DNA of 64,000 bases from positions 1 through 64,000 of IMG/VR virus record IMGVR_UViG_3300015024_000001, one strand, 5' to 3'. The number at the start of each line of letters is the position of its first letter. Position 1 is the first letter of the stretch. The stretch comes from a virus. Of the stretch, positions 46,425 through 64,000 are shown piece by piece. Made by a program: the position numbers and the translations under genes. The notes below the pieces were generated by a model that saw only the letters and a program-made list of their open reading frames with translations, was not told where the DNA came from and did no database searches.

Positions 46425-47047
46425 CTGTAAGAATCTCCATAGTGATTAGGACGATTATCATAGAAATCAACAGGTACTCTACTTCTATTATCTCTAATAA
46501 TACTACCATCCTCACTTTTATCTCTTTCACCTATATAAAAACTTTGAGGAGTTTCTGTAGTATTCCAAAGATCTGTTCCTAAACCTATAGATGTTTTTAC
46601 TATCTCATTTGGTAGAGGAATAAAACGAGATTGTAGCTGTTGTTGATTAGGACTATTTTGTGGTGTTGCTGTAGCACCTATAATTGTAATACCAGTACCA
46701 CTAAATAAAGACTGAAATAAATCTAAAGCTGCTTGTTTTAGAACAGAGATATAATTATTATCACCACCTAAGCCAACATTACCTTCATATACAGATGTTA
46801 ATATATCCGCCATAATTAATTTTTCAGCTACTGCATTTAAAATAGCATGAGGAAATAAAAGAGGTAAGTTATATATAAGTTGTAAATGAGCATTCATCCA
46901 CTCTTCTATTTGACCAGCACTAATGCGAATAAGATTTATACTAACCGTTTGTTGTAAACCAGAAGGGGTGTCACCCAAACCTGTATCTATAAATACTCTA
47001 GTTGCTAAACGCTCTTTAATATTATCAACTATAGTGTAGTACAACAT
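46415..47047 (-). CDS. head-tail adaptor (Mu gp36-like)
   Basis: MLYYTI..IKERL...MNAHLQLIYNLPL..P..ILNAVAEKL. Confidence 0.6.
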   Translation of the reverse strand: MLYYTIVDNIKERLATRVFIDTGLGDTPSGLQQTVSINLIRISAGQIEEWMNAHLQLIYNLPLLFPHAILNAVAEKLIMADILTSVYEGNVGLGGDNNYISVLKQAALDLFQSLFSGTGITIIGATATPQNSPNQQQLQSRFIPLPNEIVKTSIGLGTDLWNTTETPQSFYIGERDKSEDGSIIRDNRSRVPVDFYDNRPNHYGDSYRCP

Positions 47048-47577
47048 TAGATGTCACATAGAAAAGAAATAGAGTTGGAATATGCTGATGATATAAGTTT
47101 ACCAGTACGAGGATCTTTTGTGTACTTAAGACGTAAAGATCGATTATCGGCAATACCTGCTTTAGAACTAGATTTAGAGAAACGATCAGAAGATCCACGA
47201 TTCACTTGTCTAGCCGAACCTGCTGTTAAATCTGTACGTAATGCTGCTTTTCCCTGTAGATGTAGAGAATCACCAAGACTTTTTGTTTTCTTACCTATAG
47301 TTGATTGTAAAGCAGGTGCATTTTCAACACCAACTGAACCATACTTTTTAAGTGCCATAGCTTCTGCTTTTGCATTTAAACTTACAGGTGGTAATAAACG
47401 TTTCTTGGCAATAATCGCTGATCCTATGTCTTGTTTAGCTTTTTGAGTATTTTGTAGCCAGCTTTTAGCTTTATTAACTGTACTACCAAGTTGACCTGTA
47501 ACCTTACTCAAGACACCTGTTTTTAAACCACCCATTGTGCCTACTAAACCAAATTCTGCTGTTGTTGTATATTTCAT
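47047..47577 (-). CDS. basic protein with xxF leader motif (putative internal head protein)
   Basis: MKYTTTAEFG; Lys/Ser-rich; ends AYSNSISFLCDI. Confidence 0.65.
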   Translation of the reverse strand: MKYTTTAEFGLVGTMGGLKTGVLSKVTGQLGSTVNKAKSWLQNTQKAKQDIGSAIIAKKRLLPPVSLNAKAEAMALKKYGSVGVENAPALQSTIGKKTKSLGDSLHLQGKAALRTDLTAGSARQVNRGSSDRFSKSSSKAGIADNRSLRLKYTKDPRTGKLISSAYSNSISFLCDI

Positions 47578-47578
47578 A

Positions 47579-47935
47579 TTACCTGAACCATCCAAATATT
47601 TTATGACCTGTATTTACCCAACCTTTTCCTTCACGAGATACATTAACTACTGTTGATATATTTTTTCGTGTATCATCGAGTGGTCTTCGTTTATCTTCAC
47701 GTTGTAGTCGTTCTTCACGAGCTTTTGCTTGATCTAAACGTCTTTGCTTATAAACAAGTTCTTCTTGTTTATAAGCTAACTTTTTATCCTCTAAGATAGG
47801 ATTTTTCTTTTTACTAGAATTATAAGATTTTACTACTTTACCAGTCTCAAGATAAGAATCTGTATTATCCTTTTGCTCCTCAGTTTCTGATTTTTTAGTA
47901 TTTTGTTTTGCAAAATCTATTATCAAATAGGTCAT
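47579..47935 (-). CDS. basic protein with xxF leader motif
   Basis: MTYLIIDFAK. Confidence 0.7.
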   Translation of the reverse strand: MTYLIIDFAKQNTKKSETEEQKDNTDSYLETGKVVKSYNSSKKKNPILEDKKLAYKQEELVYKQRRLDQAKAREERLQREDKRRPLDDTRKNISTVVNVSREGKGWVNTGHKIFGWFR

Positions 47936-47990
47936 TTTATTCTTATCTTATCACAACTATAAAGAAATTAGCAATATCATATATAGAAGA

Positions 47991-48437
47991 TCAAAGTTTT
48001 TCATTATTTTTCTTTTGATTTCTTAGATTCTGATAAGCTGCTAAACTACCAAGTGCCAAACCACCAGCAACGCCACCAGCAACACCATATTTTGTTTTTA
48101 TTTTAGCAGATTTTTCTCTACCTAAGTTGTTAGCTATTAAAGCTCCGACACCTATACCACTACCAGCACCAACTAAAGAACCTGATATTAGGGCATCAAC
48201 TTTATCTATCTTTTTCTTTTCTATGGACTTATTTTGTTCAGTAAAATTGGCTATATCAGATAATAAATACATATGTTGTGACTCTTTTGTTTCATAAATT
48301 TTTCTGTAGCGTATACCTTTTAAACCTATTTTGTGTTTACGAACCACACCATTACCTGCTGCTGTTTTAAGATCAGGTTTGGCGATTATCTTACCATTTA
48401 TAGTTTTTATTTTTAATTGTCCATTTTTTATAAGCAT
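47991..48437 (-). CDS. basic Gly-zipper protein with internal xxF motif
   Basis: internal MYLLSDIANF (M at 48272), two Gly-rich hydrophobic segments. Confidence 0.65.
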   Translation of the reverse strand: MLIKNGQLKIKTINGKIIAKPDLKTAAGNGVVRKHKIGLKGIRYRKIYETKESQHMYLLSDIANFTEQNKSIEKKKIDKVDALISGSLVGAGSGIGVGALIANNLGREKSAKIKTKYGVAGGVAGGLALGSLAAYQNLRNQKKNNEKL

Positions 48438-48441
48438 AATT

Positions 48442-49677: not shown

Positions 49678-50285
49678 TACATAACCTCAGTGATACGAGC
49701 AAATCCATTAACAGCAATCCAAACACCTTTTATTTTACCACTATAATCTTCGCCTTTGATAATAGTAAAAGAAGGTACATTGTTTGATAAAGGTGCAAGA
49801 ACAATAGAATAGCTGTTAGGACTTGCATTACTGTCATGAAAACTGAGATATAAAATAGAAGTAGAGTCATTAGCAATAATTGCAGTTTTACGATTATTAT
49901 TTGCTTCAAGAAGAGTTACTGAACTAATACTACTAGTAATATTAGATAAAATAGAAGTATCTGCAAAAGCTTGTACTACAGATAAAGAATTACTAGAAGA
50001 CTTATTACCTAAACTAGAAGGTAGTTTTGTATTAATTGATGATAAGTTACCACCTGTCTCTAAAACTAAAGCTGAGGTATTAAGATTTGTACCTGCATTA
50101 ACAGTAATAGCAGAAGATCCACTACCATTACTACTATTATTACCACTACCAAGTTCACCAAGTAAGAATCGTACTAAAAATAATCTTTCTAAAAGAGAAT
50201 CTCTTAGATTTAAGTCAGCATATTCTAACTCTAATCTTCGCGTTAGAGCAAGTTTTTCTGTTGTTAAATAGTCTGATAATGCCAT
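49677..50285 (-). CDS. putative virion protein
   Basis: Ser-rich linker, then NNNRK..I.NDST..LY domain common in phage structural proteins. Confidence 0.6.
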   Translation of the reverse strand: MALSDYLTTEKLALTRRLELEYADLNLRDSLLERLFLVRFLLGELGSGNNSSNGSGSSAITVNAGTNLNTSALVLETGGNLSSINTKLPSSLGNKSSSNSLSVVQAFADTSILSNITSSISSVTLLEANNNRKTAIIANDSTSILYLSFHDSNASPNSYSIVLAPLSNNVPSFTIIKGEDYSGKIKGVWIAVNGFARITEVM

Positions 50286-50305
50286 TGTTATACACCTTTA
50301 TTATT

Positions 50306-50695
50306 TTATAATACCATAAAATCTTCTTTTGTTTTTATTTCTATAGGTAGTTTAAGATTATCTATAATTGACATACAAACACCTATATATCTATAATCTA
50401 TAATATCGTTTTTATTTTCTTTAGCAAATATTATAATGACATTCTTAGAGCGTGGAAAATAATGACCATAGAAGAGAATTTGTCCAACAGCGTGTTTGAT
50501 ATTTGACCAGTGTTTAGCTTCATACAAAATATCATCTGTTAATATATCTATATAGCCCACAGGTGTATATACTTCGCGTTGATAACCAATACCTTTCTCT
50601 TCTAAGGTTTGACATATACTGTCCACAAATAGTCGTTCATGTGGATTTTTAGGTTTTTGTAATAACAGACGTGGAGGTTTGGGTAGGTCTATCAT
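50306..50695 (-). CDS. PD-(D/E)xK nuclease-like protein
   Basis: REVYTPVGYIDIL...YEAK...AVGQILFY. Confidence 0.75.
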   Translation of the reverse strand: MIDLPKPPRLLLQKPKNPHERLFVDSICQTLEEKGIGYQREVYTPVGYIDILTDDILYEAKHWSNIKHAVGQILFYGHYFPRSKNVIIIFAKENKNDIIDYRYIGVCMSIIDNLKLPIEIKTKEDFMVL

Positions 50696-51147
50696 TTTTT
50701 CCTATTACCGAATTTCTTTTTATACATATCGTCAATGTGATCATTGATGCCAACAATATGAATATTTCGTTTTCCTACTTTTTTATCTAAGCTAGACAAA
50801 GCTCCACTAAAACGTTCATCATATTGTGAAGCTGGATTACCAACAAGATGTTCAACATGAATAGACTTTGCTGTTTTTATAGGTACTTCAGCAATACCTG
50901 TTACTACTTTTCTTTTCTTTCCACTTTTTAGATCAGTATAAGTTTTCTTTAAAAACTCTAGTTTAGGTTTTGTATTAAGGTGCTGTCTAAGATTAGTAGA
51001 ACCACGCATTGCATTAATTACATCTAACCTATCTTCATTGATAGGATTATGTTCATTCCTAAGAAGATCTTTAGTTGTAGATCCCCATTTATTCAGAACC
51101 TTCATCCAATCAGGATCTTTATAGCCGAAGTCACTCATTAAATACAT
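50692..51147 (-). CDS. GNAT-like protein with xxF leader (paralog of 53467-53883)
   Basis: MYLMSDFG; VVTG...HVEHLVGNP...RFSGA...INDHIDDMYKKKFG. Confidence 0.6.
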   Translation of the reverse strand: MYLMSDFGYKDPDWMKVLNKWGSTTKDLLRNEHNPINEDRLDVINAMRGSTNLRQHLNTKPKLEFLKKTYTDLKSGKKRKVVTGIAEVPIKTAKSIHVEHLVGNPASQYDERFSGALSSLDKKVGKRNIHIVGINDHIDDMYKKKFGNRKK

Positions 51148-51152
51148 AATGG

Positions 51153-51497
51153 TCACCAATTATACTTAGTTGCGTAATAGCTTGACCCAAAAGGATCATC
51201 TTTAGCTACCGAACCATCTTTCTTTTTTATACCAGCAAATCGTTTCTGAAAATTATCACGTCGTTTATCATCTTTATGTACAAGATAATCCTCACGTGTA
51301 TTATCACCCCAAGCTACAGTTTTTTTACGTCCATCAGAACGTTCTACAGTAACTTGATATTTCTTACCTTTTCTTGTAGAAAGTGTTGGCTCAGATATTT
51401 TATGTTCCATATCATTGTATTTAACAGTGTTAGCTTTATTTACTAACAATTTATCTACTGAAGCTACTTCAGCAAAATCACACAGAATAAAGATCAT
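51153..51497 (-). CDS. small viral protein with xxF leader
   Basis: MIFILCDFAE; STRKGKKY...WGD...DY..HKD.KRR..F..R...YY...W resembles a family I recall as DUF5754. Confidence 0.65.
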   Translation of the reverse strand: MIFILCDFAEVASVDKLLVNKANTVKYNDMEHKISEPTLSTRKGKKYQVTVERSDGRKKTVAWGDNTREDYLVHKDDKRRDNFQKRFAGIKKKDGSVAKDDPFGSSYYATKYNW

Positions 51498-51850
51498 GTC
51501 TCAGTACTTGTTGTATATTTTTGTTTCTTTTGCAAAGATTTACTAATAACATTAGTACCTGCTCCTACAATACCTGTAGTTACAGCACCAATACCTGCTG
51601 CTAATGCTGCTTCTTTTGCTGTTCTTCCACGATTAGCTTTTTTAAAAGATTCAGCAATATCGCCACCAGCAACTTTTAAAGATTCACCTAACATACGACC
51701 TTTAGGTGCATGTAATAAGTTACGTTCTAAATTAGTAACAGCGATACCACCTAACGCACCTTCACCTGCACCAACAACCATATCACGAGGATCGATTATT
51801 TTCTTTTTTTCTTGTTGCTCACTAGCAAAATCACACAATAGATAAGTCAT
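51494..51850 (-). CDS. Gly-zipper protein with xxF leader
   Basis: MTYLLCDFASEQQ; GAGEGALGG and AAGIGAVTTGIVGAG. Confidence 0.7.
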   Translation of the reverse strand: MTYLLCDFASEQQEKKKIIDPRDMVVGAGEGALGGIAVTNLERNLLHAPKGRMLGESLKVAGGDIAESFKKANRGRTAKEAALAAGIGAVTTGIVGAGTNVISKSLQKKQKYTTSTET

Positions 51851-52353
51851 TTTTTACCTCTATATTTATCTTTTAAAATATTACTCCTCTTCCAAACTTT
51901 ATTCTGTAAAAGTTCAGAATCTGGTACAGTTTCTTCCATCATACCACCATAACCTTTATAGGGATCTGTACGAAAACCAAGATAACCATTTTTAGAAGCG
52001 GCAGAGTCATCTGTCTTACGGATATCTGTAAAATTAGGATTTTTAGATTGATCTTGTTTTGGTGTGCCTTTTTCTAGTTTATATTTCTTTTTTAGAATAT
52101 CTTTATCAGCATCAGTTCCACGCCAATATCTACTATTTTGTCTATTATTCTTTAAAGTATCATTAACTGTTTCTTTCATAAGATTAGAAAGTTTAATATC
52201 TTTTTTGTTATGTGTTATATTAGTAACGTATTCTCCTAAGTTAGTAGGTTTATCTAGCTTACCATTTCTGATTTTAGATCCACTAAGTTCGTACAAATTT
52301 TTCAACTGCTTATTAGCTTTTTTAATATAACCAAAATCTACTAAAAACCACAT
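51847..52353 (-). CDS. basic protein with xxF leader, possible ADP-ribosyltransferase fold
   Basis: MWFLVDFG; YWRGT...GFRTDP..GYGG.MEE.VP. Confidence 0.55.
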   Translation of the reverse strand: MWFLVDFGYIKKANKQLKNLYELSGSKIRNGKLDKPTNLGEYVTNITHNKKDIKLSNLMKETVNDTLKNNRQNSRYWRGTDADKDILKKKYKLEKGTPKQDQSKNPNFTDIRKTDDSAASKNGYLGFRTDPYKGYGGMMEETVPDSELLQNKVWKRSNILKDKYRGKK

Positions 52354-52354
52354 A

Positions 52355-53470
52355 CTATTTATTTCTCTTATTTTGTAAACTAGAACTGTTCTGTGAAAAC
52401 CAATTGCGTATACCTTTCTGTTTAGGTTTCTTGCTTGTGTAAGAACCACCTTCAGCTTTGTACTTACGTGTTGCTATAGATGCTTTAACAGCTGACCATT
52501 GCCCAGCCACACCTCCTTTATCAGAAGCTTTTGTTTGTGCTACTATGGCACGCCATCTAGGGCTGTTTTTCTCTTTACCAAAATCTACATACTCCCGAGC
52601 TTTATCATACACACCTTGCAAGTCACCGTCACCTTTCTTTTCTATGGTTCTAATTTTCTTGCGTAGTTTAAAAGGTATTTGTGACCACTTTTCTGTTGGT
52701 ATTGATATATGTTGTGAATGTCCAGCATCAAAGTCACATAGAAGGAAAGTGGTACGGGAGAAACCAATACCGAGTGTCTCATACACAGGATGTTTATATC
52801 CAGCTTTGGTTTTTATATATCCAGCAGGTTCTTTGGTGTCAGGATCTATATTAATCTTCTTTTTACCTTTTAATGTGGCTATAACTTGCCTAGGTTCATC
52901 TCCCTGTGTAGGTAGATATAAACCTCCTTTCTTAGCATCAGCACTGTACTTAACATTCTTAGCATAAGTATGTTTACCACCAGATGTTACACTGATAATA
53001 GTTGAAGATTCTTTTAACTTTTTAAGAAGTTTTTCATACTCATCTTTATCTATTTTACCAGCTAAAAAATCGTTAATTACTTTACGTTTATCTACTGTCT
53101 CATTGATTTTAGATATGTTAGATAAATCCAAAGGTTTATCACTTTCTAAGTCTGGATCCCATCTACTTTTACTACGATAAAGATTTGATCGTGTTGTTGC
53201 TGGCTCTAATTTGTTGTTGGAAGGTCTTATAGATTTAGCATAGTCATCTACTTTCATTGTTGGTCTAGCACCAACAACTGATGTAAAAGCTTCGCCATGA
53301 ATATCAACTATAGAAGACTTAGCATTTTTGTTTGTTTTTAAAGGTAAAGGAAGACGAAATACCTTACCTTCAGAACCCATCCAGTCTCTAGTTAATCGCT
53401 TACCATCACGACTTAAACCTGCTGGTCTAGGTACTAAATTCTTCATTTTCTTTAATTGTTCAGGTGTCAT
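52355..53470 (-). CDS. basic multi-segment protein with internal xxF motifs
   Basis: internal FSRTTFLLCDF and EYVDFG; C-terminal KGGVAGQWSAVKA...YK.EGG.Y resembles a family I recall as DUF5872. Confidence 0.7.
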   Translation of the reverse strand: MTPEQLKKMKNLVPRPAGLSRDGKRLTRDWMGSEGKVFRLPLPLKTNKNAKSSIVDIHGEAFTSVVGARPTMKVDDYAKSIRPSNNKLEPATTRSNLYRSKSRWDPDLESDKPLDLSNISKINETVDKRKVINDFLAGKIDKDEYEKLLKKLKESSTIISVTSGGKHTYAKNVKYSADAKKGGLYLPTQGDEPRQVIATLKGKKKINIDPDTKEPAGYIKTKAGYKHPVYETLGIGFSRTTFLLCDFDAGHSQHISIPTEKWSQIPFKLRKKIRTIEKKGDGDLQGVYDKAREYVDFGKEKNSPRWRAIVAQTKASDKGGVAGQWSAVKASIATRKYKAEGGSYTSKKPKQKGIRNWFSQNSSSLQNKRNK

Positions 53471-53883
53471 ACTCTTTTACTTCCCAATTTTTTGTTGTAT
53501 AGACGATCAACAGCATTGTTGATAGGATCAATTTCTATATTTTTAGTACCAGCTCTTTTACGTACAGAATCCACTGCACCCTTGAACTTATTATCTCTCT
53601 TTGAGAAAGGATTACCAACTAGATTTCGTACTATCAGACGGTCAAGTTTATCTTTACCTTGCATCATACCAGTAACTACTCTACGATTACGTCCTTGAGT
53701 ATCTTTATATTCTTTCTTAAGTAGTTCTAGTCCTTGTCTATTACGCATACTGTCCAACATCATTTGTCGATGGTAAGCTGTAGTATCATTAAATGGCTCT
53801 ATTGATTTACTTATACGTGACCATTTATCCAATATTTTATTATAATTCGGTTCTTTAAAAGCAAACTCAGCTAGTAGGTACAT
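53467..53883 (-). CDS. GNAT-like protein with xxF leader (paralog of 50692-51147)
   Basis: MYLLAEFAF; VVTG...IVRNLVGNP...KFKGA...INNAVDRLYNKKLG. Confidence 0.6.
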   Translation of the reverse strand: MYLLAEFAFKEPNYNKILDKWSRISKSIEPFNDTTAYHRQMMLDSMRNRQGLELLKKEYKDTQGRNRRVVTGMMQGKDKLDRLIVRNLVGNPFSKRDNKFKGAVDSVRKRAGTKNIEIDPINNAVDRLYNKKLGSKRV

Positions 53884-54193
53884 TTTGAGAATCCATATGT
53901 TGTTTTATTTTTAGCCATCTCTCTGTGCTAAACTTTTCTTGGTTAAAATACCACTGTCTTATACCACTATGACCTTTACTTACATTACAGGAACGACAAG
54001 CAGGGATCAAATTTGAGTACTCATCACTACCAAATTTAGCTAGAGGTGTTATGTGGTCTATAGTTAGTTCTTTATGTTTTTGGGTATAACCACAATAAGC
54101 ACATTGATTGTTCCATTCTTCTTTTAGATGTTTACGCATCATTGCGGCATGTTGACGAGGGATATACAACTCAAGACCGCTTTGCATGATCAA
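53867..54193 (-). CDS. HNH endonuclease
   Basis: CAYCG...TIDHITP...NLIPACRSCNVSK. Confidence 0.92.
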   Translation of the reverse strand: MIMQSGLELYIPRQHAAMMRKHLKEEWNNQCAYCGYTQKHKELTIDHITPLAKFGSDEYSNLIPACRSCNVSKGHSGIRQWYFNQEKFSTERWLKIKQHMDSQNVPTS

Positions 54194-54408: not shown

Positions 54409-55674
54409 TCAAGCCAAAACCTCATGAGCTTTATTATAATAAGCTATGCGGTCGTCTATACCGTTGAGTCCTCCGTTGACAACTCTTGTGACCATATAGA
54501 TGTCAGCACCTTCCTTATTAATATAATCAGACAGTGTGTTTTTATTCCAAAACCAACCAGCGCTAGTGAAGGGATAGTTATCAGCTACATAATAACAACC
54601 TTGTTTAATAACTTCAGGATCGTTTATATCTTTTGAGAAACTCGTATAATTTCCACGTCCTGTTAATTGTATAAAACCTGAACCTTTAAATTTACAACCA
54701 TCACCTTTTTGTGTGTTACCTAAATCTTCACGACCTTCATAATCATCACCTGAAGCTATTTCCTTAGTATAAATAAGACCTGCAGATTCAGCCCCAACTT
54801 GCCCTAAGAACTGGCAAACATCTTCATGGGTGTTTATACCAAAAGTCTGCAAACACCTCTTAAAATCGATATACAAGGCATCTGATAGCGTATTATTATA
54901 TATATCTTCTAGTTGTGCTTTTGTTGGTATAAAATCCGTAGAAAAAGAAATTAATTGATCATCTTTATATAGAGAAACATGTTCAGCAAAAGCATATAAA
55001 ATACCAAGTATACTATTACAATTTAATTTTATATGTTTTTGAGATGGTGCTTCATAGCTAGTAATGGATAGTGATTGACCAGAAGCTATTGAAATTTTTT
55101 CATTAGAACTTAGTAAAGAAGAATCAATAGGTTTGGTTTTAAACCATGTCTTTTGATTAGCTTTTACGTACAACCCTGTAGTGTTTTGTTCTTGGCTACT
55201 ACTTGCCGAAGATTTTCCCAGCAAATTAGTTGGGTTAATAATATCATCAGCTATTTCAGCAATTGTATTAATAGTTGGATCTTTTGTTATTGAATTAACA
55301 ATAGATTCAGCAGGTTTTTCTACAACTTGTGTTACCGTTGTAATAATATTAGCGGGTTGATCTTGTACAGCTACAATAGGTACAACAGGTACTACAGGAA
55401 TTTCTACAATAGCAGGTTGCATAACAGCTACTTTTACAACATCTGTCTTATCACGTCCAATAATACCTTTAGGTGTATAAATATTAGGCTCTACTAATTT
55501 TAAAGTAGCAGCAACTCCAGTAGCAATAACAGATGAAATCAAGTGTTCTATATCTTTACGACTTAAATTACCATCAATTGCAGAATCAATAGCTGGTTGA
55601 CAACTAGTTATATAGAATAAACCGATAACTGTCCAAAAATGTTTAGTAGTAAATAAATTACGTTGTTCTAACAT
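54409..55674 (-). CDS. endolysin, glycoside hydrolase family 19, with long N-terminal extension
   Basis: FLGQVGAES, YEGREDLGN, FKGSGFIQLTGRGNY, SAGWFW, VNGGLNGIDDR. Confidence 0.92.
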   Translation of the reverse strand: MLEQRNLFTTKHFWTVIGLFYITSCQPAIDSAIDGNLSRKDIEHLISSVIATGVAATLKLVEPNIYTPKGIIGRDKTDVVKVAVMQPAIVEIPVVPVVPIVAVQDQPANIITTVTQVVEKPAESIVNSITKDPTINTIAEIADDIINPTNLLGKSSASSSQEQNTTGLYVKANQKTWFKTKPIDSSLLSSNEKISIASGQSLSITSYEAPSQKHIKLNCNSILGILYAFAEHVSLYKDDQLISFSTDFIPTKAQLEDIYNNTLSDALYIDFKRCLQTFGINTHEDVCQFLGQVGAESAGLIYTKEIASGDDYEGREDLGNTQKGDGCKFKGSGFIQLTGRGNYTSFSKDINDPEVIKQGCYYVADNYPFTSAGWFWNKNTLSDYINKEGADIYMVTRVVNGGLNGIDDRIAYYNKAHEVLA

Positions 55675-55689: not shown

Positions 55690-56409
55690 TTAATTTTTAT
55701 TTTCTTTCTTTTTACGATTGGCTAATGCTAAAGCAGTTCCAACACCAGCAATACCTAACACACCTGCACCGAGAGCTAATCCAAGACCTATACCACCTTT
55801 ACCTTTAGGTTTGACTGCTTCTGTTACTGTCTTTACTTTAGATGTATCAAATTTAACTTGAGGTATATCTAATTTGATATCAGGTACTTTTGTAAACTTC
55901 TTAGCAAGCTTTGTTTGAGCTTTACTTACAGATTGTACTTTAATATCTTTACTTGGACTCTTCGGTGTGAGTATATCTTTAGGATCTAATTTATTCTTTT
56001 TCTCTCCAATAGTTGAGGCTGATTGTGGTATATATTTACCTGTTGATATTTTAGAATCATTGATAATTTTATTACCCTTTTCAGATTTCAGTTGCATACC
56101 AGCAGTATTACTATTGTCAGTATATTTAGTTTTTCGAGGTAGTTGTATATTGTCGTCTGCTAACTGATAAGGTGCTAGAATTTTACCTTTAGTACCGAAA
56201 ACTTTGGTTCGTGCTTCAAGAGGGTCAGCATCTCTTAAATTCTTACGGTTTCGTAAGAACCTTTCTGATACATCTTTATTAGATGGATTAACACCTACTT
56301 CGTCCACAGTCATACGTTTTGCTGTTTTTAACTCAGCTTCACGTTTCTTTTTTTTATTCTCTTTATTACCAAAGGTTGCATAAGGCAACATATTAGCTAG
56401 TATAAACAT
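55690..56409 (-). CDS. Lys-rich protein with xxF leader and C-terminal Gly-rich TM segment
   Basis: MFILANMLPYATFG...GIGLGLALGAGVLGIAGVGTALALANRKKK. Confidence 0.7.
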   Translation of the reverse strand: MFILANMLPYATFGNKENKKKKREAELKTAKRMTVDEVGVNPSNKDVSERFLRNRKNLRDADPLEARTKVFGTKGKILAPYQLADDNIQLPRKTKYTDNSNTAGMQLKSEKGNKIINDSKISTGKYIPQSASTIGEKKNKLDPKDILTPKSPSKDIKVQSVSKAQTKLAKKFTKVPDIKLDIPQVKFDTSKVKTVTEAVKPKGKGGIGLGLALGAGVLGIAGVGTALALANRKKKENKN

Positions 56410-56412: not shown

Positions 56413-56946
56413 TTATTCTATCTCAGAAATAACTATAGAAGTGTCAGCCCAACTTTTGCCGAAGCCCAATTTCTGCCATTTATCGAGGTCAGCCATAGAA
56501 GAGAAAGTAGTACCATTAGATAAAGCCTCAACGAGTTTTTCTGCAGTCTTACGTGAAACATAAGGTAGTGATGCTAGTTCATCAACAGTTGCTATCTTTA
56601 ATGTAATTTGTTTTGCACCTTGCACTACATGGTCAGGTGAATTAAGACTTGTAAGATCAATAACAGTAGGTTGTACTTCAGCAATAGTCTCTGCTTGTCC
56701 ATAAGAAGGTTGAAAATGTTGTTCAATAACATTTTTATTAGCAACTGGATTATAATGAGATTCAATTACATTTCTTTCTATGTGGCTTAATTCTGGTGCT
56801 AAAATTGTACCATGATCAACTAATGTTGCAAAAGTTGACTGTAGTGCAAGTTGAGGTAACTCAGATTCAAAATAAGGTTTGGAACGTTGTTGGTAAACAG
56901 AACCATCTTGAGTTACAAATGTACGATGTAAAATATATTTACGCAT
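56413..56946 (-). CDS. helix-hairpin-helix (ComEA-like) domain protein
   Basis: ITLKIATVDELASLPYVSRKTAEKLV. Confidence 0.7.
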   Translation of the reverse strand: MRKYILHRTFVTQDGSVYQQRSKPYFESELPQLALQSTFATLVDHGTILAPELSHIERNVIESHYNPVANKNVIEQHFQPSYGQAETIAEVQPTVIDLTSLNSPDHVVQGAKQITLKIATVDELASLPYVSRKTAEKLVEALSNGTTFSSMADLDKWQKLGFGKSWADTSIVISEIE

Positions 56947-57196
56947 TAGGGTTATTTAAGATATTGTTAGTTTGTGCAATATTAGGTTGCGGTGTCGGTA
57001 CAGTATAAGTTTTCTTTTTTCCTTTACCAATTAAAGGTGCAGCTATATCATCAGCGACTGGTGCTATAGCTTTTCCAATACTTGCAAGAAAAGAACCTCC
57101 AGAATTTGTAACTGGTGTCGCTACTTTCTGTCCTATAGCTTCTCCAGCATCTTCTATTAATGTGGTGGCTATGCCAAAATCAGATATTATGTGCAT
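56939..57196 (-). CDS. small protein with xxF leader
   Basis: MHIISDFG. Confidence 0.65.
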   Translation of the reverse strand: MHIISDFGIATTLIEDAGEAIGQKVATPVTNSGGSFLASIGKAIAPVADDIAAPLIGKGKKKTYTVPTPQPNIAQTNNILNNPNA

Positions 57197-57353
57197 ATAT
57201 TAATTTCCAATCTGTACCTTGTAATTTATATAAATTAGTTGGTTCTTGTTTTTGTGCTAGTGATGTAATACGGATAGGTAAAGGTAATCTTATTACTGAA
57301 CCTTGTTTATGTAGCATTGTATTTTATAAGTAACTATATCTATTATATCTTAT

Positions 57354-57476: not shown

Positions 57477-57536
57477 AAGACTTTTATTTTTATTATAACT
57501 TATAAAGATACTTATATGCTATATACAGCATATAAA

Positions 57537-57567
57537 AATAAAGTAGACTTTTACATCTACTTTATTT
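57537..57567 (-). terminator. stem-loop terminator after major capsid gene
   Basis: aaataaagtaga / tctactttattt inverted repeat about 20 nt past the capsid stop. Confidence 0.7.
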
Positions 57568-57586
57568 AATATATTTAAAACTATTA

Positions 57587-58720
57587 CTAAGAAATCTTAC
57601 GACTCAAACCAAATTTACTGCATTCAACAGAAACTGGTAAGATTCTAGCAAGTACTTCACTTACATCCTTGCTTTGAACAAGTAGATCTTGATATGTGCG
57701 TTGATATATACCAGCTGCAGCATTATTTTCAATAACTCCACCCATAGCTTTAAGGATCTTACCTTTCTTAATGAAACAGTAGCGATCAGTATTCAAAAAG
57801 CGAATATTACCACCAGAAGTACCGGGAGTTACGTCCATTTCTGTACGTTCATCAAATGTACTAATTTTAGGTATACCACGAGCTTCAAGAACAGCTTGCA
57901 GACGCTCAGGAGCAACAACACCTTGTAATGCAGCACCACCATCTAAGAATAAGCTAGAAGCTGCTTCTTTAGTAGATTTCTGTTGTAACAATTCTTGCCA
58001 AACCTTACGTGACATAACAATGGCATCAGGAGCCATACCAGTTGAATCATAATACAAGTTAATGTCATTATAGATGTCTTGAATACCATTAGCTGTTGCA
58101 CGATTAGCAGCTGTCCAAGGAATATCAACAACAGCAGTAGGAAAGTGATCTCCTGCTGTAATCAATGAAGAATCTTTCCAATCTAGGTCAACACTCATCT
58201 GAGTACGAGGATCTACATAATTAACAGCACCAAATTGAATAACTTGCCAAGTCATATATTCCAATAGTTCGCCAACAGAACGTACTAGACCTGAGAGATT
58301 ACCAAATAATAAAGCAGCAAGACTGTTATTAGAACCTTCAATGACTTTACCATCAGCACCCATCATATTTTGTACATAGATACCACGAGCTTCTGCTAGT
58401 TCAATAGCATCACGTAGATTCCATTGGTCTTCTTCGTCATATTCATGTCTAAGACCAACCTTGAAGGATTCAGCAGTGATCTTACGAAATTGACCCTTAC
58501 GAGTTGAAGGGATAGCTCCGTTAGGTGCTACAACAGAAGCCATCGTATTAATCTGCTTTGTAATGTAAGCTAAGAAGTTACGATTATCGTATGTCTTAGT
58601 CTCTACATATTGATCTAACCATTTAGATCTTTGTTGAAGTTCCCACAAAGTTTCGTCAACAACCATATCTGCTTGACGGCTTTGGAGTTCTTCGTTTAGC
58701 CAAGTGCTAATATAAGACAT
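57587..58720 (-). CDS. major capsid protein (lambda gpE-like HK97 fold)
   Basis: 377 aa, AGGAG RBS, LEYMTWQVI..G.V.Y, PW...A..IQDI, PDAIVMSRKVW; followed by terminator. Confidence 0.88.
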   Translation of the reverse strand: MSYISTWLNEELQSRQADMVVDETLWELQQRSKWLDQYVETKTYDNRNFLAYITKQINTMASVVAPNGAIPSTRKGQFRKITAESFKVGLRHEYDEEDQWNLRDAIELAEARGIYVQNMMGADGKVIEGSNNSLAALLFGNLSGLVRSVGELLEYMTWQVIQFGAVNYVDPRTQMSVDLDWKDSSLITAGDHFPTAVVDIPWTAANRATANGIQDIYNDINLYYDSTGMAPDAIVMSRKVWQELLQQKSTKEAASSLFLDGGAALQGVVAPERLQAVLEARGIPKISTFDERTEMDVTPGTSGGNIRFLNTDRYCFIKKGKILKAMGGVIENNAAAGIYQRTYQDLLVQSKDVSEVLARILPVSVECSKFGLSRKIS

Positions 58721-58737
58721 TTTTTAATTCTCCTAAT

Positions 58738-59616
58738 TTAATAAAAAACAAATCGGTTGAGACGACGTTTAATGTCCTCATCAACATAAGGTAAATTAAC
58801 AGTATAAATACCTGTATCACAACCAAAACAAGGTGCAATATCTACAGAAGGTTTAGTCATAAAATCGATACCATGACAATATACGCCAAGTAGATTTGTA
58901 AAACGAACTCCAATACGCGCACCAACTGGTACATCTAAACTAGAATTAGCTGTAAGAGTGATAACACCTGTTACAGATACAAAAGCAATAACACCAATAA
59001 CAGTGTTACTAATAGTTAGAGTAGATCCAGAAGCAGTTGAAACACCAGCAACAGAAGCTGCAGTATCATCAACATTACGAGCAGCAGAAGTCAATGTACG
59101 TGCTGTAGAACCATCTTTACCGTATAGATAAACAGTAGCGTTCATTGCGACAGCCTTAACTAAGCCACTAATATTAGGATTATCATTAATAGCATTAGCA
59201 ACAGTAGTAGCAATATCTGTATTAATAGCTGAACCAGTTACAACAAGAACAGAATAACCATCAACAGTTACTTTAACGGTTTCTGTTGTTAAATACGTAC
59301 CACTAAGAACAATACTTCCATAAGGTTCTACGATATATAAAGAATCACCTGTTTTAAAAGTGTTATATGGTAATGCTACAGTACCAATCGTTGCAGCTAC
59401 AGAAAATGCACTAGTTACTAAAGAACGAGCTAAGAAACGTACAGCATTACCTGTTTGTACAACAAATGAGCCAGCAGGTACAATTTTATAACCATAAGCA
59501 TTAGAAGCAATATCAGTACCAGAGACAACGACTGAACGAGGATATTGCGCTCCGTCTTGATTAAATAGAATAGGGAGATCCTGTACATAAGGACTCTCAC
59601 GCTTGATATAAGACAT
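58738..59616 (-). CDS. head decoration protein
   Basis: directly upstream of capsid gene; GYKIVPAGSFV...IY..NLP with inserted beta domain; GAGG RBS. Confidence 0.7.
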   Translation of the reverse strand: MSYIKRESPYVQDLPILFNQDGAQYPRSVVVSGTDIASNAYGYKIVPAGSFVVQTGNAVRFLARSLVTSAFSVAATIGTVALPYNTFKTGDSLYIVEPYGSIVLSGTYLTTETVKVTVDGYSVLVVTGSAINTDIATTVANAINDNPNISGLVKAVAMNATVYLYGKDGSTARTLTSAARNVDDTAASVAGVSTASGSTLTISNTVIGVIAFVSVTGVITLTANSSLDVPVGARIGVRFTNLLGVYCHGIDFMTKPSVDIAPCFGCDTGIYTVNLPYVDEDIKRRLNRFVFY

Positions 59617-59626
59617 TTTTTACCTC

Positions 59627-60421
59627 TTATTTATTAAATAAACCAATCGCTTGCAAAGAACGTTTAGCAGTCTCATCCATATGAGAAGAACGCTCTACAG
59701 CAGCAAAATCAACATCTACATTTACATATTGATTAAAGTCCACCAACTTGCCACAACGCTTAAACAATTCAAGAGCAAATTCTATCGCGTGTAGTTGTGT
59801 ATCTATACTGACTCCATTTTTTGAAGCTAACATAGAAAAAGAAGCAACCATATCTTCTTCACGATTAAAGTTAGCCACCAAAGCTTCTTTAGCAATAGGA
59901 GCTAACCAGCCTTGTTCAACTCCGAACTCAGCCCTAGCATTGATATTAGCTAGACGATCTTTAACAGCACTAAATGTTTCAACAGTTGCTAAACGAGCCT
60001 CAAGTTCAGCAACACGTGTGTCACCTGCGGAAAAAGAAGCTGTATTACGTGTATAAGCAGAATAAGCACCAACAGCTTCATATTCTTCTACGTCTTCATA
60101 CTCTTCTTCATACTCATCTTCTAATTCTGCTGTTAAATCAATTAGATTAGCAGAATCCATAGCAATAGCTAACAAACCATTATAAACATCTCGGTTATTA
60201 GTTTGATCAAATACCGATGCCATGATTTCAAAATCTTCTTGTTCAATATCAATTTCAGAAGCTTCGATTAGACCGACGATTTGCTCATCATCTACTTCAA
60301 AACCTTGCTCTTGGAAAGCTGTTGCGATAGTATACAAACCATCATCAACAGTTTCATATTCATCATTGATTAGATCCAATAAGGACTGACCAAATAAATT
60401 TCCTGCTTGAATATTATACAT
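59627..60421 (-). CDS. capsid scaffolding protein (acidic)
   Basis: very acidic, coiled-coil, between protease and capsid genes; GAGG RBS. Confidence 0.65.
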   Translation of the reverse strand: MYNIQAGNLFGQSLLDLINDEYETVDDGLYTIATAFQEQGFEVDDEQIVGLIEASEIDIEQEDFEIMASVFDQTNNRDVYNGLLAIAMDSANLIDLTAELEDEYEEEYEDVEEYEAVGAYSAYTRNTASFSAGDTRVAELEARLATVETFSAVKDRLANINARAEFGVEQGWLAPIAKEALVANFNREEDMVASFSMLASKNGVSIDTQLHAIEFALELFKRCGKLVDFNQYVNVDVDFAAVERSSHMDETAKRSLQAIGLFNK

Positions 60422-60430
60422 TTATACCTC

Positions 60431-61099
60431 TTATTCTACGTTCTTATTCTTTTTACTTAAAGCACTACCAATTGCTGCAATACCAGCACCAGCAGCACCA
60501 AGACGTACAGCCTTACCTGTTAAAGTACGACCAGCGACTTTGTTCAATACGCCTCTAGCACCAATACCACCTTCTTTAAAGCCCATTTTACCGAACTTCT
60601 CAGCACCTTCAGCAAGTGTTTTACCAAAACCTTCAGAAGCCTTACCTTTAGCAATTAAAGCACGTTCAGGATTACCACCAACAGCAGAAATGTCATTAGC
60701 TAAAGTCTTAACTGATTTACGGAAACCTAAACCATCTGCCACACCTTCAATTGATTTCTGACCATTAAGCTTACCTAATGATTCAGTCCTAGCTTTCTTA
60801 GCTGCTATAAAATTATTAGGGGCAGTACTTGCTTTAGCTTTAGCAAAATCTTCACCAGCTTTAACTTTTCTAGCAGCTTTAATTGCCTCATCAGATTGAG
60901 GTGTAACAGGAACAATAGCAGTAGGTGGTTTTGCTTGTGATTGTCTAGATAGTGCATCTAAAGTTGCTTGACGATTTTCATTAGCACTAGGCATACTACG
61001 TGGAGTATACGTTGGTGCTACTGGTGCTTCAACTACTTTCTTTTTACGAGCAAAGTTTGCTGATTTATTGTACTTAGCGAATGTACCTAATGTACTCAT
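60431..61099 (-). CDS. Ala/Lys-rich protein with xxF leader and C-terminal Gly-rich segment
   Basis: MSTLGTFAKYNKSANFARKKK...LGAAGAGIAAIGSALSKKNK. Confidence 0.7.
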   Translation of the reverse strand: MSTLGTFAKYNKSANFARKKKVVEAPVAPTYTPRSMPSANENRQATLDALSRQSQAKPPTAIVPVTPQSDEAIKAARKVKAGEDFAKAKASTAPNNFIAAKKARTESLGKLNGQKSIEGVADGLGFRKSVKTLANDISAVGGNPERALIAKGKASEGFGKTLAEGAEKFGKMGFKEGGIGARGVLNKVAGRTLTGKAVRLGAAGAGIAAIGSALSKKNKNVE

Positions 61100-61111
61100 T
61101 TAATTACCTCT

Positions 61112-62050
61112 CTAACAAGAGTATTTTTGTTTACTTTTTACGGTTTTACCTGTTGGTTTAACCTTTTTTGTTTTATTAAGCATTTCTGCAAGTCCAAAGT
61201 TAGCTGCTCTGTATTTACTTGCTCTATAAGTTGGCATTATAGTGCCTGTACCTATTACATTTGCTGTATCAGTAATCTCTGTGGATTCTTTCTCATTATT
61301 AAGATCAAGTAATTTTTTAACTCTTTCAACAAAACCATAAAGAGTAACATCTAAGAGTTGGTTTGGATCTTTTCCTTTCAACTCTGCCTCATCGGCTGTA
61401 TAAATATTACGAATATATGACCAAAGTTGTTCTGTTAAATCTTCATACTCTTCTTCTTTATCTTCTAATTCATCTTCAGTTTCTTGGTCATCATCCCAAG
61501 TCAATGCTGAAAACTTAGCTTTACTATATAAAGTAGCATGTTCCCAAGCAGGAATACCAACAAGTGATATTTCTTTTAAAGAATCAGTTAAAAGATCCAA
61601 ACCCATAGAAACAGAAGAAGCTGTTCCTTCTAATACTTTCTCTATAACTTCAGGAGTTTGTATAACTAAGTTACGTACAAATAATGCTGCTTTACCTAAC
61701 AGTTTAATAGCTTTAGGATTGATTTTATCTATATCTTCTTGCGTTACTGTTTTAACATATAGTTCTGCATTATTAGCATTACCAACAGTTGCTAAAGCTG
61801 TCTTATTATGTTCCAATAACAAAGGTAGTTTAATACCTTCCTCAAGTGCAGCATTTGTATTAGCAGCTATATTTGTTAGTCGTTCAGCAGTAAACGTATG
61901 TACAACACCTTTTGAATCAGGTAGTGTACCTTCTAACATTAAAATAGCATCTTTAGTTACACAACCATTAACGTCCTGTGCAAAGGTAGATAGCAATGAA
62001 GCTTGTTTACCTGTGAAGTGTGTAGTAGTTGTGGTTTTTGTTTTTATCAT
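61112..62050 (-). CDS. prohead maturation protease
   Basis: PLLLEH, VG, SVSMG, LKEISLVGIPA (HK97/Mu-type serine protease pattern). Confidence 0.8.
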   Translation of the reverse strand: MIKTKTTTTTHFTGKQASLLSTFAQDVNGCVTKDAILMLEGTLPDSKGVVHTFTAERLTNIAANTNAALEEGIKLPLLLEHNKTALATVGNANNAELYVKTVTQEDIDKINPKAIKLLGKAALFVRNLVIQTPEVIEKVLEGTASSVSMGLDLLTDSLKEISLVGIPAWEHATLYSKAKFSALTWDDDQETEDELEDKEEEYEDLTEQLWSYIRNIYTADEAELKGKDPNQLLDVTLYGFVERVKKLLDLNNEKESTEITDTANVIGTGTIMPTYRASKYRAANFGLAEMLNKTKKVKPTGKTVKSKQKYSC

Positions 62051-62130
62051 CGTTAAAGATGTTTTTGTTACTATTTATAAGATATACTAATATATATACA
62101 GAGACATCTAAAAACTATAATAAATCGGAA

Positions 62131-62355
62131 ATGCCGTTATCTAAATATTCTGTTAATGCTAAGATAGGTTGGAAACTAAGACAAACTAGAGAAGATTTAG
62201 ATCTCAAGCAGAAAGATGTTGCAGCCAAACTACATAGAGATCCTGATTTTGTTTCTATGTCAGAGCTTGATAAACGACAAATCTCCGTTGATGATATTGT
62301 TGCTTTTTCACATATATATAAAAAACCAATTATTTATTTTTTTAGTGACTTATGA
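62131..62355 (+). CDS. XRE-family helix-turn-helix regulator
   Basis: IGWKLRQTREDLDLKQKDVAAKL...VSMSELDKR; divergent from protease gene. Confidence 0.85.
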   Translation: MPLSKYSVNAKIGWKLRQTREDLDLKQKDVAAKLHRDPDFVSMSELDKRQISVDDIVAFSHIYKKPIIYFFSDL

Positions 62356-64000
62356 TATTTGCAGATGATTTCGTAGAATTTAATGAAGAAGTTAAAACTT
62401 ACCAGAGAATGCAAAAAGGTAAACTTATAACTGTAAGACAATACGATAGGAAAGGTGATCCTGCTGAAAAAGAACAAACTATAGAAAAGAATGACAATGC
62501 AATTATGCAAAGTCTGAAGACAGGAGCTATAGTTACTACTGGTGTTGCTTTAGCAGGTTTATCATTAGTTGGTATTGGAGCAGCAACAAAAGCTTATGTA
62601 ATAAATAGACATGCTAAACAAGTATTAAATGAAGCAGAACGTGTGTTACAAGCAAGTGATGTGTCTGACCTTCGTTTCTTATCAAAAGCTAATCCTGAAA
62701 AACTACCTGATAATTTTGATCGGTATGAAGGTATAATTATTGCGACTGGTGGATTTGGTGGTACTAAAGGACAGCATACACTTGAAGTACATAAGTATAT
62801 ACAACAAGAATACCCTAACCACCTAGTTGTATCTGTTGAAAATATGTATCATGATTTAGGTTGGAGAGAAGATGTTGTAGATAGATTTAAAGCTGCTCCT
62901 GCATTATTATGGCGTAATGCAACACAAGGGAATAAAACATCAGAAGAAATAGCTACTTTAACTAAAATGCTACGTAAAAGAACAGATAAACCTATTACTA
63001 TAGTATCTGCTTCTGGTGGTGGTATGGCAGTAAAAGAAGCTCAAGAGATAACAGATAAGTTAGGTTATAAAGATATACAAGGAATAGGTCTAGGAACACC
63101 AACTTTTACACTTGCAAATCCTAAATCCCCTTTTGTTTCTTTTGTAGACAAGAAAGATGCAACAGTGGGTTGGATTCCTAAAACTTCAAAAAAAGATACA
63201 GTATATATAGATAGACCAACAACTAAAGTAAAGTGGAATCTTAATCCATACCAAGGTGAAATACCTCACAATGAACAACATGAGTTTGGTACTTATCTTT
63301 TGCACGGTGAGACAAGATCTAAAGTAGATCAAATACTGTATAGGAACATAGCTAATAAAGATGTATTTAAACTAGAAAACTACACTATTGACTATAAACA
63401 AAATGTAGCGCGTAATCCATATATAAGTAAACAAGGACAAAACTCTAGTTATAGTAAGCTAGAACAACAAGCTTGGGCGAACTTTAATATACTCTTCCCT
63501 TCTATGGATGCTGATTTTGCTAGTGAACAACAAGTAGAAGTTAAATCTTATATGCGTAATGGAAAACTTGTAAAATCTTATACAGCAGGTAGAGATAAAG
63601 CGGTACAAGATTCTAGTTTAACTAATAGACTACGTAATAATATTGCTGGAAACATAGAAAAGAAAGGTCTAAATGAAGATACGGCAGATAAATTAGCCGA
63701 AGTAGCGTTAATTGTTGGTGGTACAGGTGTTGCTTTAATAGGTAGTAAGATGATACTAAATGGTGGTTTAGCAGCAGCTTTAAATATGGGTCGTCATGCT
63801 TGGAATACTAACTTTCTTAAACGTAATAGAATGATTGAAGAGATGGCTGATGAGCTTGTGAGTGGTAGGAAACTGTTCAGAGGTCAGACATTACGTTCTA
63901 CTATAGGTGATGCTGATACAGTAATAACTATCAAAGGTGGCATCAATATGGGTGGTAAAGGTGGTACTACTATTAAAAATGAATACCTTGATAAAATAAG
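62352..64000 (+). CDS. large repeat-unit protein with alpha/beta-hydrolase domain (runs off window; not in ORF track)
   Basis: Read manually with no stop: MIFADDFVEF..., TM segment, IIIATGGFGG, IVSASGGG, GLGTP, D, QHEFGTY; second unit starts at ADFASEQQ (63513). Confidence 0.8.
   Translation, partial: MIFADDFVEFNEEVKTYQRMQKGKLITVRQYDRKGDPAEKEQTIEKNDNAIMQSLKTGAIVTTGVALAGLSLVGIGAATKAYVINRHAKQVLNEAERVLQASDVSDLRFLSKANPEKLPDNFDRYEGIIIATGGFGGTKGQHTLEVHKYIQQEYPNHLVVSVENMYHDLGWREDVVDRFKAAPALLWRNATQGNKTSEEIATLTKMLRKRTDKPITIVSASGGGMAVKEAQEITDKLGYKDIQGIGLGTPTFTLANPKSPFVSFVDKKDATVGWIPKTSKKDTVYIDRPTTKVKWNLNPYQGEIPHNEQHEFGTYLLHGETRSKVDQILYRNIANKDVFKLENYTIDYKQNVARNPYISKQGQNSSYSKLEQQAWANFNILFPSMDADFASEQQVEVKSYMRNGKLVKSYTAGRDKAVQDSSLTNRLRNNIAGNIEKKGLNEDTADKLAEVALIVGGTGVALIGSKMILNGGLAAALNMGRHAWNTNFLKRNRMIEEMADELVSGRKLFRGQTLRSTIGDADTVITIKGGINMGGKGGTTIKNEYLDKI

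Follow-up and report, generated by a model that had tools for sequence, protein, structure and literature searches.

Why should a dozen or so otherwise dissimilar proteins, encoded around the capsid genes of a single virus, begin with the same few residues? The question is raised by the window analysed here, a stretch of 64,000 nucleotides that forms the first 64 kb of the 131,991-bp virus record IMGVR_UViG_3300015024_000001 (estimated completeness 95%). An initial annotation of the window proposed that a short hydrophobic leader ending in phenylalanine is a capsid-targeting and cleavage code for packaged cargo. The genes bearing the motif belong to the head-assembly module of a 132-kb cyanophage genome, and the motif is probably the cut site, with Phe at P1, of the phage's own prohead serine protease, which would indeed cleave there. 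What stands of the proposal is its cleavage part, supported by a motif that flanks the protease core, is dense in the putative scaffold, is absent from the capsid and putative decoration proteins and lies at the joints between modules; the targeting part is left as a possibility that is weighed below. No description of the motif was found in open-access papers or on bioRxiv. Proposed cuts are marked ↓ throughout, and coordinates that run beyond the window are given as genome positions.

Distribution of the leader motif

All 12 N-terminal strings picked out by the initial annotation were found at the starts it gave for them, and the shared leader is real and reaches well beyond the window. For counting, the head module was defined as the 28 genes at 47-69 kb, with 176 genes making up the rest of the genome. 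The initial annotation had not seen the motif at the starts of plus-strand metabolic genes or of tail genes, and its enrichment at N-termini is indeed confined to the head module: [DE]F[AG] lies within the first 12 residues of 8/28 head-module genes and 0/176 others (Fisher 4.8e-8), while [DENT]F[AG] within the first 20 residues gave 11/28 and 3/176. An unbiased scan of 181 dipeptides at residues 2-14 ranked DF, FG and FA as the three most enriched, DF being present in 8/28 head-module and 4/176 other genes (p 1.6e-5). The 5-mer [LIVMFYA][ASTCVI][DNE]F[AGS] was counted 11 times over the 7,099 residues of the head module, seven of the 11 beginning at residue 4 or 5, as against 7 times in 33,017 residues elsewhere. 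Three settings can be recognised: a putative N-terminal propeptide of 6-16 residues on ~13-15 head-module proteins, linker sites in fused proteins, and the flanks of the protease together with the scaffold.

Such a pattern might have no function and reflect chance, paralogue ancestry or an element of the DNA itself (for example a promoter, a translation-initiation region or a site of recombination). Codons for Y, L, I, F, N and K are favoured by the AT-richness of the genome, whose GC is about 0.30-0.37, and two paralogous pairs exist. Against this, [DE]F[AG] is absent from the starts of all 176 other genes of the same genome, and the shared leader residues are encoded by codons, and preceded by DNA, that vary from copy to copy, so that conservation is at the level of protein and a DNA-repeat origin is ruled out. 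The proteins are also as unrelated as had been claimed, BLASTP giving E<0.01 in just 4/91 pairs of mature parts (one paralogous pair, two pairs with lipase-like proteins and one short shared module) and leaving 87/91 unrelated. With the motif kept in relatives whose protease is just ~30% identical, an absence of function is hardly credible.

The description of these proteins as Lys-rich was equally well founded, since mature pI (isoelectric point) exceeds 9 in 12/13 leader proteins but in only 32/191 other genes. They form a distinct basic class, with a median mature pI of 9.86 vs 5.59 (Mann-Whitney 9e-8). The cargo is mostly unrelated and very basic; several members have glycine-zipper-like hydrophobic segments and three have lipase-like domains. 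Gly/Ala-rich hydrophobic segments were seen in six motif-bearing head-module proteins, five with leaders and the sixth the protein encoded at 47991. With 6-16 residues and no basic n-region, the leaders do not look like Sec-type signal peptides, an idea set aside on inspection only. The sole good lookalike outside the head module, MLKIIFSDNVDFG, belongs to an 89-aa open reading frame (ORF) among early/metabolic genes (6944-7213, plus strand) and is either a product of chance or a cargo gene encoded elsewhere.

Anatomy of the leader

In the clade of the window the leader has the form M-x-[YF]-[LI]-[LI]-x-[DN], followed by 0-6 residues, then F and then A, G or S, and Phe is the conserved residue before the small P1' residue in all window leaders. 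The proposed site would have Phe at P1, D, E or N (sometimes T or S) at P2 and a small or aliphatic P3 with hydrophobic residues upstream of it, while A, G or S would occupy P1'. Orthologues of the DUF5754 protein (51153-51497, minus strand) begin MISLLCD, followed by 0-3 variable residues and F↓[AS]; a fixed start joined to Phe by a variable spacer indicates that the leader has two conserved elements. Leaders are often more conserved than the remainder of the protein, as with MKYTTTAEF and MKYTTTANF in orthologues of 50% overall identity, or MSTLGTFAKYNKSANFARKKK and its counterpart MSTLGTFAKFSSEANFARGKK in a relative at 46%.

Sites in the protease and scaffold

The presence of the motif within the scaffold and protease, also claimed at the outset, was borne out by five scaffold sites and two protease sites. 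The prohead serine protease (61112-62050, minus strand; phrog_976, E 5e-6) has sites at F23 (SLLSTF↓A) and F285 (KYRAANF↓G). Across 13 close homologues F23 hardly varies and F285, in a tail that is variable elsewhere, does not vary at all. A profile built from these 13 retrieved 194 representatives at E<=1e-3 from a library of 1.84 billion proteins, and in 40 diverse homologues (24-78% identity) [AST]-[DNE]-F recurs ahead of the folded core and A-x-F in the C-terminal tail. H81 and S148, the presumed catalytic residues, are invariant in the same 40.

An AlphaFold model of the protease (mean predicted local distance difference test score, pLDDT, 79.8) has a confident core at residues 25-178 and helices at 185-247, and both sites lie in its low-pLDDT flanks. 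Pfam gave no match for the phage protease or for any of the 40 homologues, and a search of the sequence against PDB chains returned chance coiled-coil matches only. With Foldseek, the top PDB matches of the model were all herpesvirus assemblins (best E 3.8e-3, probability 1.0). VIA, an all-against-representatives aligner, ranked the varicella-zoster virus (VZV) protease first (Z 10.7, root-mean-square deviation 2.8, 113 aligned) and T4 gp21 second (Z 9.3, deviation 3.1, 119 aligned); both alignments span the catalytic core, whereas lower VIA rows match the helical tail only. The model thus points to an assemblin/gp21 fold and to a structural relative of the T4 enzyme that removes the capsid targeting sequence. 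The system had been called independent of that of T4, a view that does not fit a fold shared with gp21: the enzyme would be a relative of T4's and not an independent invention, and specificity (Phe, not Glu, at P1) and cargo alone differ. A complex prediction for residues 22-182 of the protease (the core, with alignment A2) and the N-terminal 40 residues of the 51494-51850 protein scored 0.02, in a run without controls that carries no weight in either direction.

The acidic scaffold-like protein (59627-60421, minus strand), recognised from position and composition, carries its five internal sites (ASF↓S, AEF↓G, ASF↓S, IEF↓A and VDF↓A) in 264 residues, whereas none occurs in the major capsid protein (57587-58720, minus strand) or in the putative decoration protein. 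Scaffold homologues in 10/12 other loci examined keep sites of the A-[NE]-F↓S type, e.g. SAEF↓SVGN, VANF↓SIGN and LQAEF↓SSGQ, and the consensus across the clade is [VLA]-A-[NE]-F↓S-x-G; the ORF taken from L034, one of the two loci lacking sites, was probably mis-picked.

Sites at gene joints

The motif had also been reported at apparent internal domain boundaries, and these coincide with joints at which relatives fuse or split genes. In locus L001 the homologues of two adjacent window genes (47579-47935 and its neighbour) form one ORF with the joint VLASF↓SSS. Within the 52355-53470 protein, TTFLLCDF↓DAGH aligns with MWLLSDIQF↓DAGH and MVFLLCDF↓YAGH, the leaders of genes that stand alone in relatives; these genes (P0182, P0183 and P0187) are themselves fused to DUF5754 via a second site, QY[VA]DF↓A, for which the window protein has EYVDF↓G. 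Long protease homologues carry a downstream basic protein, like that at 60431-61099, as a C-terminal tail joined through P.A.F↓SM.D.AEF↓G. This coincidence of module boundaries with the motif is as expected for polyprotein processing sites.

The leader might instead be an assembly tag that is never cut, an N-terminal strand that binds the scaffold, the portal or the inside of the capsid and is retained in the mature protein. It is short, hydrophobic, strand-like and in most cases strictly N-terminal, as such a tag would be, but this leaves unexplained why the motif also stands in disordered protease flanks, is dense in the scaffold and marks internal fusion joints, and the idea is judged improbable.

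Relatives across the clade

Searches of IMG/VR with the capsid protein or alignment A1 found just 3 close relatives; bacterial genome contigs yielded none with alignment A1, and a search with the distant protease P0029 alone led to none. Alignment A2 was too diverse for pattern design, and a narrower protease alignment, A3, led to 29 IMG/VR loci. Pam2 and PA-SR01, phages of Pseudanabaena, are the sole cultured phages with a detectable capsid/protease homologue (~32% identity) in the phage collection searched. For the pooled count 13/29 loci were kept, after 16 duplicates or near-duplicates (L007-L009, L012, L013, L021-L030 and L033) had been dropped. [ASTC][DNE]F occurs in the first 25 residues of 52/311 ORFs from these 13 loci, vs 9/176 non-head genes of the phage (Fisher 1.7e-4), and K+R averages 3.8 in the 12 residues behind a called site vs 0.9 in the background (92 and 15 sites). 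A loose pattern requiring a hydrophobic start matched 54/581 ORFs of the 29 loci and 7/176 background genes and was left out of the statistics; it has almost no matches in Pam2-like loci, where leaders are without that start.

The leaders themselves can be followed from locus to locus. Those of L006 are MFFLSDVKSVEF↓AKSK and MFFLSDFQENLEF↓SKGRKKGS, those of L011 and L016 MYYLSDISEF↓ARKKGSKDK and MKTLFISDINTNF↓AREIK, that of L015 MAYTLLDAAYEMYYPEAEF↓G, and that of L032 MFQLSHF↓SRKIGSKDKHKR (reading MFQLSHF↓SRKIGSKDK). L034 encodes at least 8 proteins with ..LAEF↓ARKKGSKDKKKRK or similar, MFFLSD..EF↓A is another form found in distant loci, and directly behind the Pam2 protease gene stand MSLKAEF↓AAKQQ and MNKKSLLLKKAEF↓AQPS (..KKAEF↓A). 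The clade-wide part is [small]-[N/E/D]-F with a small residue behind it and often a very basic stretch next, the M-phi-phi-L-S-D start being clade-specific. No Pfam family was found for the small basic 'ARKKGSKDK' proteins, and a scan of 10 proteins of relatives (small basic ones and larger ones with leaders) gave 1 weak glycine-zipper match.

These comparisons bear on the chief competing explanation, in which the leader serves cleavage only, as a pro-sequence or safety catch that silences membrane-active, DNA-binding or lipolytic proteins until the head protease cuts, entry into the head depending on other parts such as basic tails or a hairpin-like V-K-x-Y-x-R-K-G-K-x-V module. That the clade-universal part is merely [small]-[DNE]-F↓, the hydrophobic start being restricted to one clade, is in its favour. 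So is the recurrence in several relatives of the basic module behind the site, or behind an initiator Met with no leader, and lipase-like and glycine-zipper cargo could harm the producing cell. Yet M-phi-phi-L-x-D is kept in the window's clade although its spacer to Phe varies by 0-3 residues, which suggests a second function beyond the scissile bond, and cleavage as the leader's only role is considered rather unlikely.

The basic module is a feature of some interest in its own right. It spans ~20 residues, V-[KR]-x-[YFHS]-x-[RK]-..-[KR]-G-[KR]-x-V-..-[YH]-x-R (e.g. VKTYQRMQKGKLITVRQYDR), and stands straight behind a leader, behind the initiator Met or near the C-termini of head-module proteins. 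Strict matches number 2 in the phage genome (62391-62450 and, in genome coordinates, 65460-65519) and 14 in four relatives (L006, L011, L016 and L032); a family search was negative. It could be what actually anchors these proteins to the capsid or the DNA.

Comparison with known systems

The closest known system is the capsid targeting sequence of T4 with its protease gp21, followed by those of SPN3US/phiKZ, then DarB of P1 and then Prp with phage 80alpha. In T4 one motif serves internal proteins, scaffold and the protease itself, and the gp21 consensus is L/I-x-E with the cut behind Glu. The likeness lies in a short N-terminal leader common to several small basic internal head proteins and, as found here, in one short motif placed on several head-protein N-termini, in the scaffold and in the protease. 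The differences are that Glu occupies P1 in T4 and Phe here, the sites conforming to neither L/I-x-E nor A-x-E; that this phage, a relative of long-tailed cyanophages, has a lambda-E-type capsid with a separate scaffold; and that its leaders vary from 6 to 16 residues and are borne by about half of the head-module genes. Targeting by the leader has been demonstrated for T4; in the present phage it is a possibility.

PMC10052503 gives the T4 capsid targeting sequence as a precedent and describes the A-X-E propeptides of SPN3US and phiKZ, which are cut by gp245 and gp175 respectively. There too a single motif serves for repeated cuts in head and ejection proteins and the protease cuts itself at its C-terminus, and the small P3 residue (Ala) of those phages has its counterpart in the small P3 here. 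They differ, according to the same paper, in having Glu at P1, in propeptides that are mostly long (111-254 residues) and in that just 9 of ~50 head proteins are cut. The present system is further set apart from T4 and the giant phages in that its sites mark fusion and fission joints and that its setting is a cyanobacterial siphovirus. By analogy, the phage would work like the T4 and SPN3US/phiKZ systems with a different motif. For P1 DarB, the N-terminal 30 residues suffice to load the protein into the head, and the passages of PMC9024508 consulted describe no sequence motif shared among cargo and no defined cleavage motif.

More distant in enzyme class, but formally alike, is Prp, a cysteine protease whose F↓A cuts, in ribosomal protein L27 as well as in capsid and scaffold proteins of Staphylococcus phage 80alpha, lie behind an N-terminal leader of ~9-15 residues that ends in Phe and is followed by Ala at P1' (PMC9405229). 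A Prp of phage or host might process the leaders described here, given the likeness to MLxx(D/N)LQ(F/L)F'A(S/H)KK in a short leader, Phe at P1 and Ala at P1'. The window leaders, however, have neither the LQ nor the double Phe of (D/N)LQ(F/L)F↓A(S/H)KK, the substrates are a large cargo set and not the capsid protein, and the motif brackets the phage's own serine protease. The host is probably a Pseudanabaena-like cyanobacterium, since Pseudanabaena cinerea and a Pseudanabaenaceae metagenome-assembled genome have, among the matches listed, copies 92% identical to a TnpB of the phage. The Prp family PF04327 was found neither in the phage nor in 84 cyanobacterial genomes searched, comprising 3 with the closest TnpB copies, Pseudanabaena cinerea included (0/3), and 81 sampled from the phylum (0/81), the identity of the host depending on the 92% TnpB match alone; the positive controls B. 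subtilis, T. maritima and L. lactis all matched. Processing by Prp is consequently regarded as very improbable.

Proposed mechanism and its weighing

Under the preferred reading, in which the motif is cut by the phage's own protease, leader proteins would join the assembling procapsid alongside scaffold and protease core. After closure of the shell the protease would cut behind Phe: it would trim itself, fragment the scaffold so that the pieces could exit, take off the leaders and split the fused modules. The basic mature proteins would remain with the DNA until infection, when they would exit from the head. Ejection into the host, argued from T4, P22 and the giant phages, is given an even chance. 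The conserved start M-phi-phi-L-x-D may possibly also target proteins to the capsid, an idea that attracts less confidence. More speculative still is a general capsid-loading code, portable between proteins, in a clade of cyanobacterial siphoviruses that is large and has hardly any cultured members. Here the leader, of 7-16 residues, would pull any protein into the procapsid, perhaps via the substrate groove of a scaffold-tethered protease, and the Phe cut would release it, so that at least 10 DNA-coating, membrane-inserting and lipolytic proteins would be delivered to the host, the cargo being shuffled, fused and split exactly at the cut sites. This wider view is offered tentatively.

A number of points weigh against cleavage at the motif or soften the case for it. 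The 204 genes over the whole genome were called by a crude longest-ORF script. The names scaffold, decoration and portal are suggestions from position, size and composition, no family match lying behind them. The core tripeptide is low in information, and individual sites, especially internal ones and those of distant relatives, are uncertain because [ASTC][DNE]F falls by chance within the first 25 residues of 9/176 non-head genes. Positions P3-P1' in the relatives are circular as evidence, the site patterns having been derived from the window, and only the flanks are independent. So strongly conserved a hydrophobic start (MxYLLxD) would be superfluous for cleavage alone. Finally, for the virion of the cultured relative PA-SR01, the accessible part of its paper gives four bands on sodium dodecyl sulphate polyacrylamide gel electrophoresis (SDS-PAGE) only and contains no mass spectrometry.

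The value of the motif is that it provides a testable proteolytic code, with Phe at P1, for a prohead protease family without a Pfam model. From sequence alone it could single out, among the hypothetical proteins of such cyanophages, those that undergo processing and belong to the head or its cargo, and the fusion and splitting of cargo genes at the sites shows clearly how modules are exchanged at sites of processing. Should the leader have a targeting role as well, cyanophage heads could be loaded with proteins by means of a short tag, as has been done with the T4 and P1 signals.

The leader-bearing proteins

The cargo had been described as a swappable set, which agrees with the finding that close relatives have other subsets and other fusions. 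Most of the leader genes of the window lie on the minus strand. The first encodes a basic protein of 176 aa (47047-47577; mature pI 10.4) with the leader MKYTTTAEF↓G, matched by MKYTTTANF↓A in its L001 orthologue at 50% identity. It is followed by a Lys-rich protein of 118 aa with MTYLIIDF↓A (47579-47935), the L001 homologue of which is fused behind the neighbouring gene. The next protein (47991-48437) has MYLLSDIANF↓T as an internal site, with Gly/Ala-rich hydrophobic segments behind it. The Met at 48272 had been taken as a gene start, but the upstream 55 residues (MLIKNGQLKIK...) are conserved in L001; the gene therefore likely starts at 48437 and the Met is probably internal.

Further along the same strand, a 151-aa protein with MYLMSDF↓G (50692-51147) is a paralogue of the 138-aa protein with MYLLAEF↓A at 53467-53883 (BLASTP 7e-24), whose L001 orthologue begins MYLLHDLCSF↓G. 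Between them are the DUF5754 protein of 114 aa (51153-51497; PF19058, E 7e-10), with the leader MIFILCDF↓A and weak similarity (E 3.7e-3) to the PHROG 'minor head protein and DNA pilot', a 118-aa protein with MTYLLCDF↓A and a C-terminal Gly/Ala-rich segment (51494-51850), the start of which overlaps the stop of the upstream gene by 4 nucleotides, and a basic protein of 168 aa with MWFLVDF↓G (51847-52353). The protein of 371 aa at 52355-53470 carries its internal sites TTFLLCDF↓DAGH and EYVDF↓GK at F247 and F297 (alignment A4). Beyond the paralogous pair come a Lys-rich protein of 239 aa (55690-56409), with the leader MFILANMLPYATF↓G and a C-terminal glycine-zipper-like segment, and an 85-aa protein with MHIISDF↓G (56939-57196), at pI 8.3 the sole leader protein with a mature value below 9. 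The basic protein of 222 aa at 60431-61099 has the double site MSTLGTF↓AKYNKSANF↓ARKKK.

Three adjacent leader proteins on the plus strand have lipase-like (alpha/beta hydrolase) regions and are candidate virion-borne lipolytic enzymes. The first, of 742 aa (62352-64580, genome; the window ends at 64000), has the leader MIFADDFVEF↓N, to which MIFANELASF↓T corresponds in the L001 orthologue, and an internal SMDADF↓A (F389) between two lipase-like halves, two stretches resembling the Lipase_3 protein encoded next to it. The latter (64580-65410, genome; leader MYIIIDITNAEFG) scores 28.3 bits for Lipase_3 vs a cut-off of 22, and the third (65403-66431, genome; leader MPRLYLISDIAMFS) has one lipase-like region by BLASTP. 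The putative portal, which starts at 68931 (genome, minus strand) and has the leader MITNITTQSFADFT, is with the two proteins encoded at 64580 and 65403 one of three members beyond the window that add to the initial list. For the leader proteins other than DUF5754 and the lipase-like ones, the family scans found no family.

Neighbouring genes and minor observations

The head module contains a major capsid protein that, as had been proposed, is of the lambda gpE type: its match to Phage_cap_E (PF03864, E 4.9e-10) reaches 39.4 bits vs a Pfam cut-off of 22.9, and it also matches phrog_29. The putative decoration protein, of 292 aa, lies between the scaffold and capsid genes (58738-59616, minus strand), is named from position only and gave no family match in Pfam and PHROG scans. 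Past the end of the window are the putative portal of 839 aa (66412-68931, genome, minus strand), suggested by size and position and without a match in family scans, and the large terminase (70185-71795, genome; phrog_38, E 6.5e-80). Tail genes lie downstream of the head module and include a tape-measure-sized ORF of 2,342 aa (36793-43821, minus strand), in which LQKDALSTF↓AGSFD, resembling the SLLSTF↓A of the protease, occurs ~300 residues from the C-terminus; it was noticed in an internal ORF with a TTG start.

Within the cargo cluster is an HNH endonuclease gene (53867-54187, minus strand; PF01844, E 1.8e-14), and in L001 a different insertion of 527 aa (11249-12832) directly follows the capsid gene; it starts ..GIYVIRN.. 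and is GIY-YIG-like by eye only. A 421-aa protein (54409-55674, minus strand) has a C-terminal endolysin/chitinase-like domain (phrog_181, E 5e-44) and a hydrophobic N-terminus but no N-terminal leader, though it stands amid leader genes. Also without an N-terminal leader is a 177-aa protein (56413-56946, minus strand) with a helix-hairpin-helix region that at 24.5 bits (HHH_3, E 2.9e-5) stays under the cut-off of 27 bits; it has LALQSTF↓A at residue 40 (LALQSAF↓A in L001), which may mark a longer propeptide.

Two ORFs are TnpB-like by eye only, at 104980-106164 (genome) and 23221-24366, both on the plus strand; the former has at least 442 tblastn relatives among 600 candidate stretches of bacterial genome contigs, the 80 kept being mostly cyanobacterial and including the Pseudanabaena cinerea and Pseudanabaenaceae copies of 92% identity that point to the host. 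The Pam2 record ON014754.1 (L004) includes, at 1227-3068, a head-module coding sequence of 613 aa labelled by its depositors 'botulinum neurotoxin type B', and its place between the terminase and head genes suggests that the label is a mis-annotation. At 13947-15682 (plus strand) two neighbouring paralogous ORFs, both beginning MNILSLFDGLSC, appear by eye only to be tandem DNA methyltransferases.

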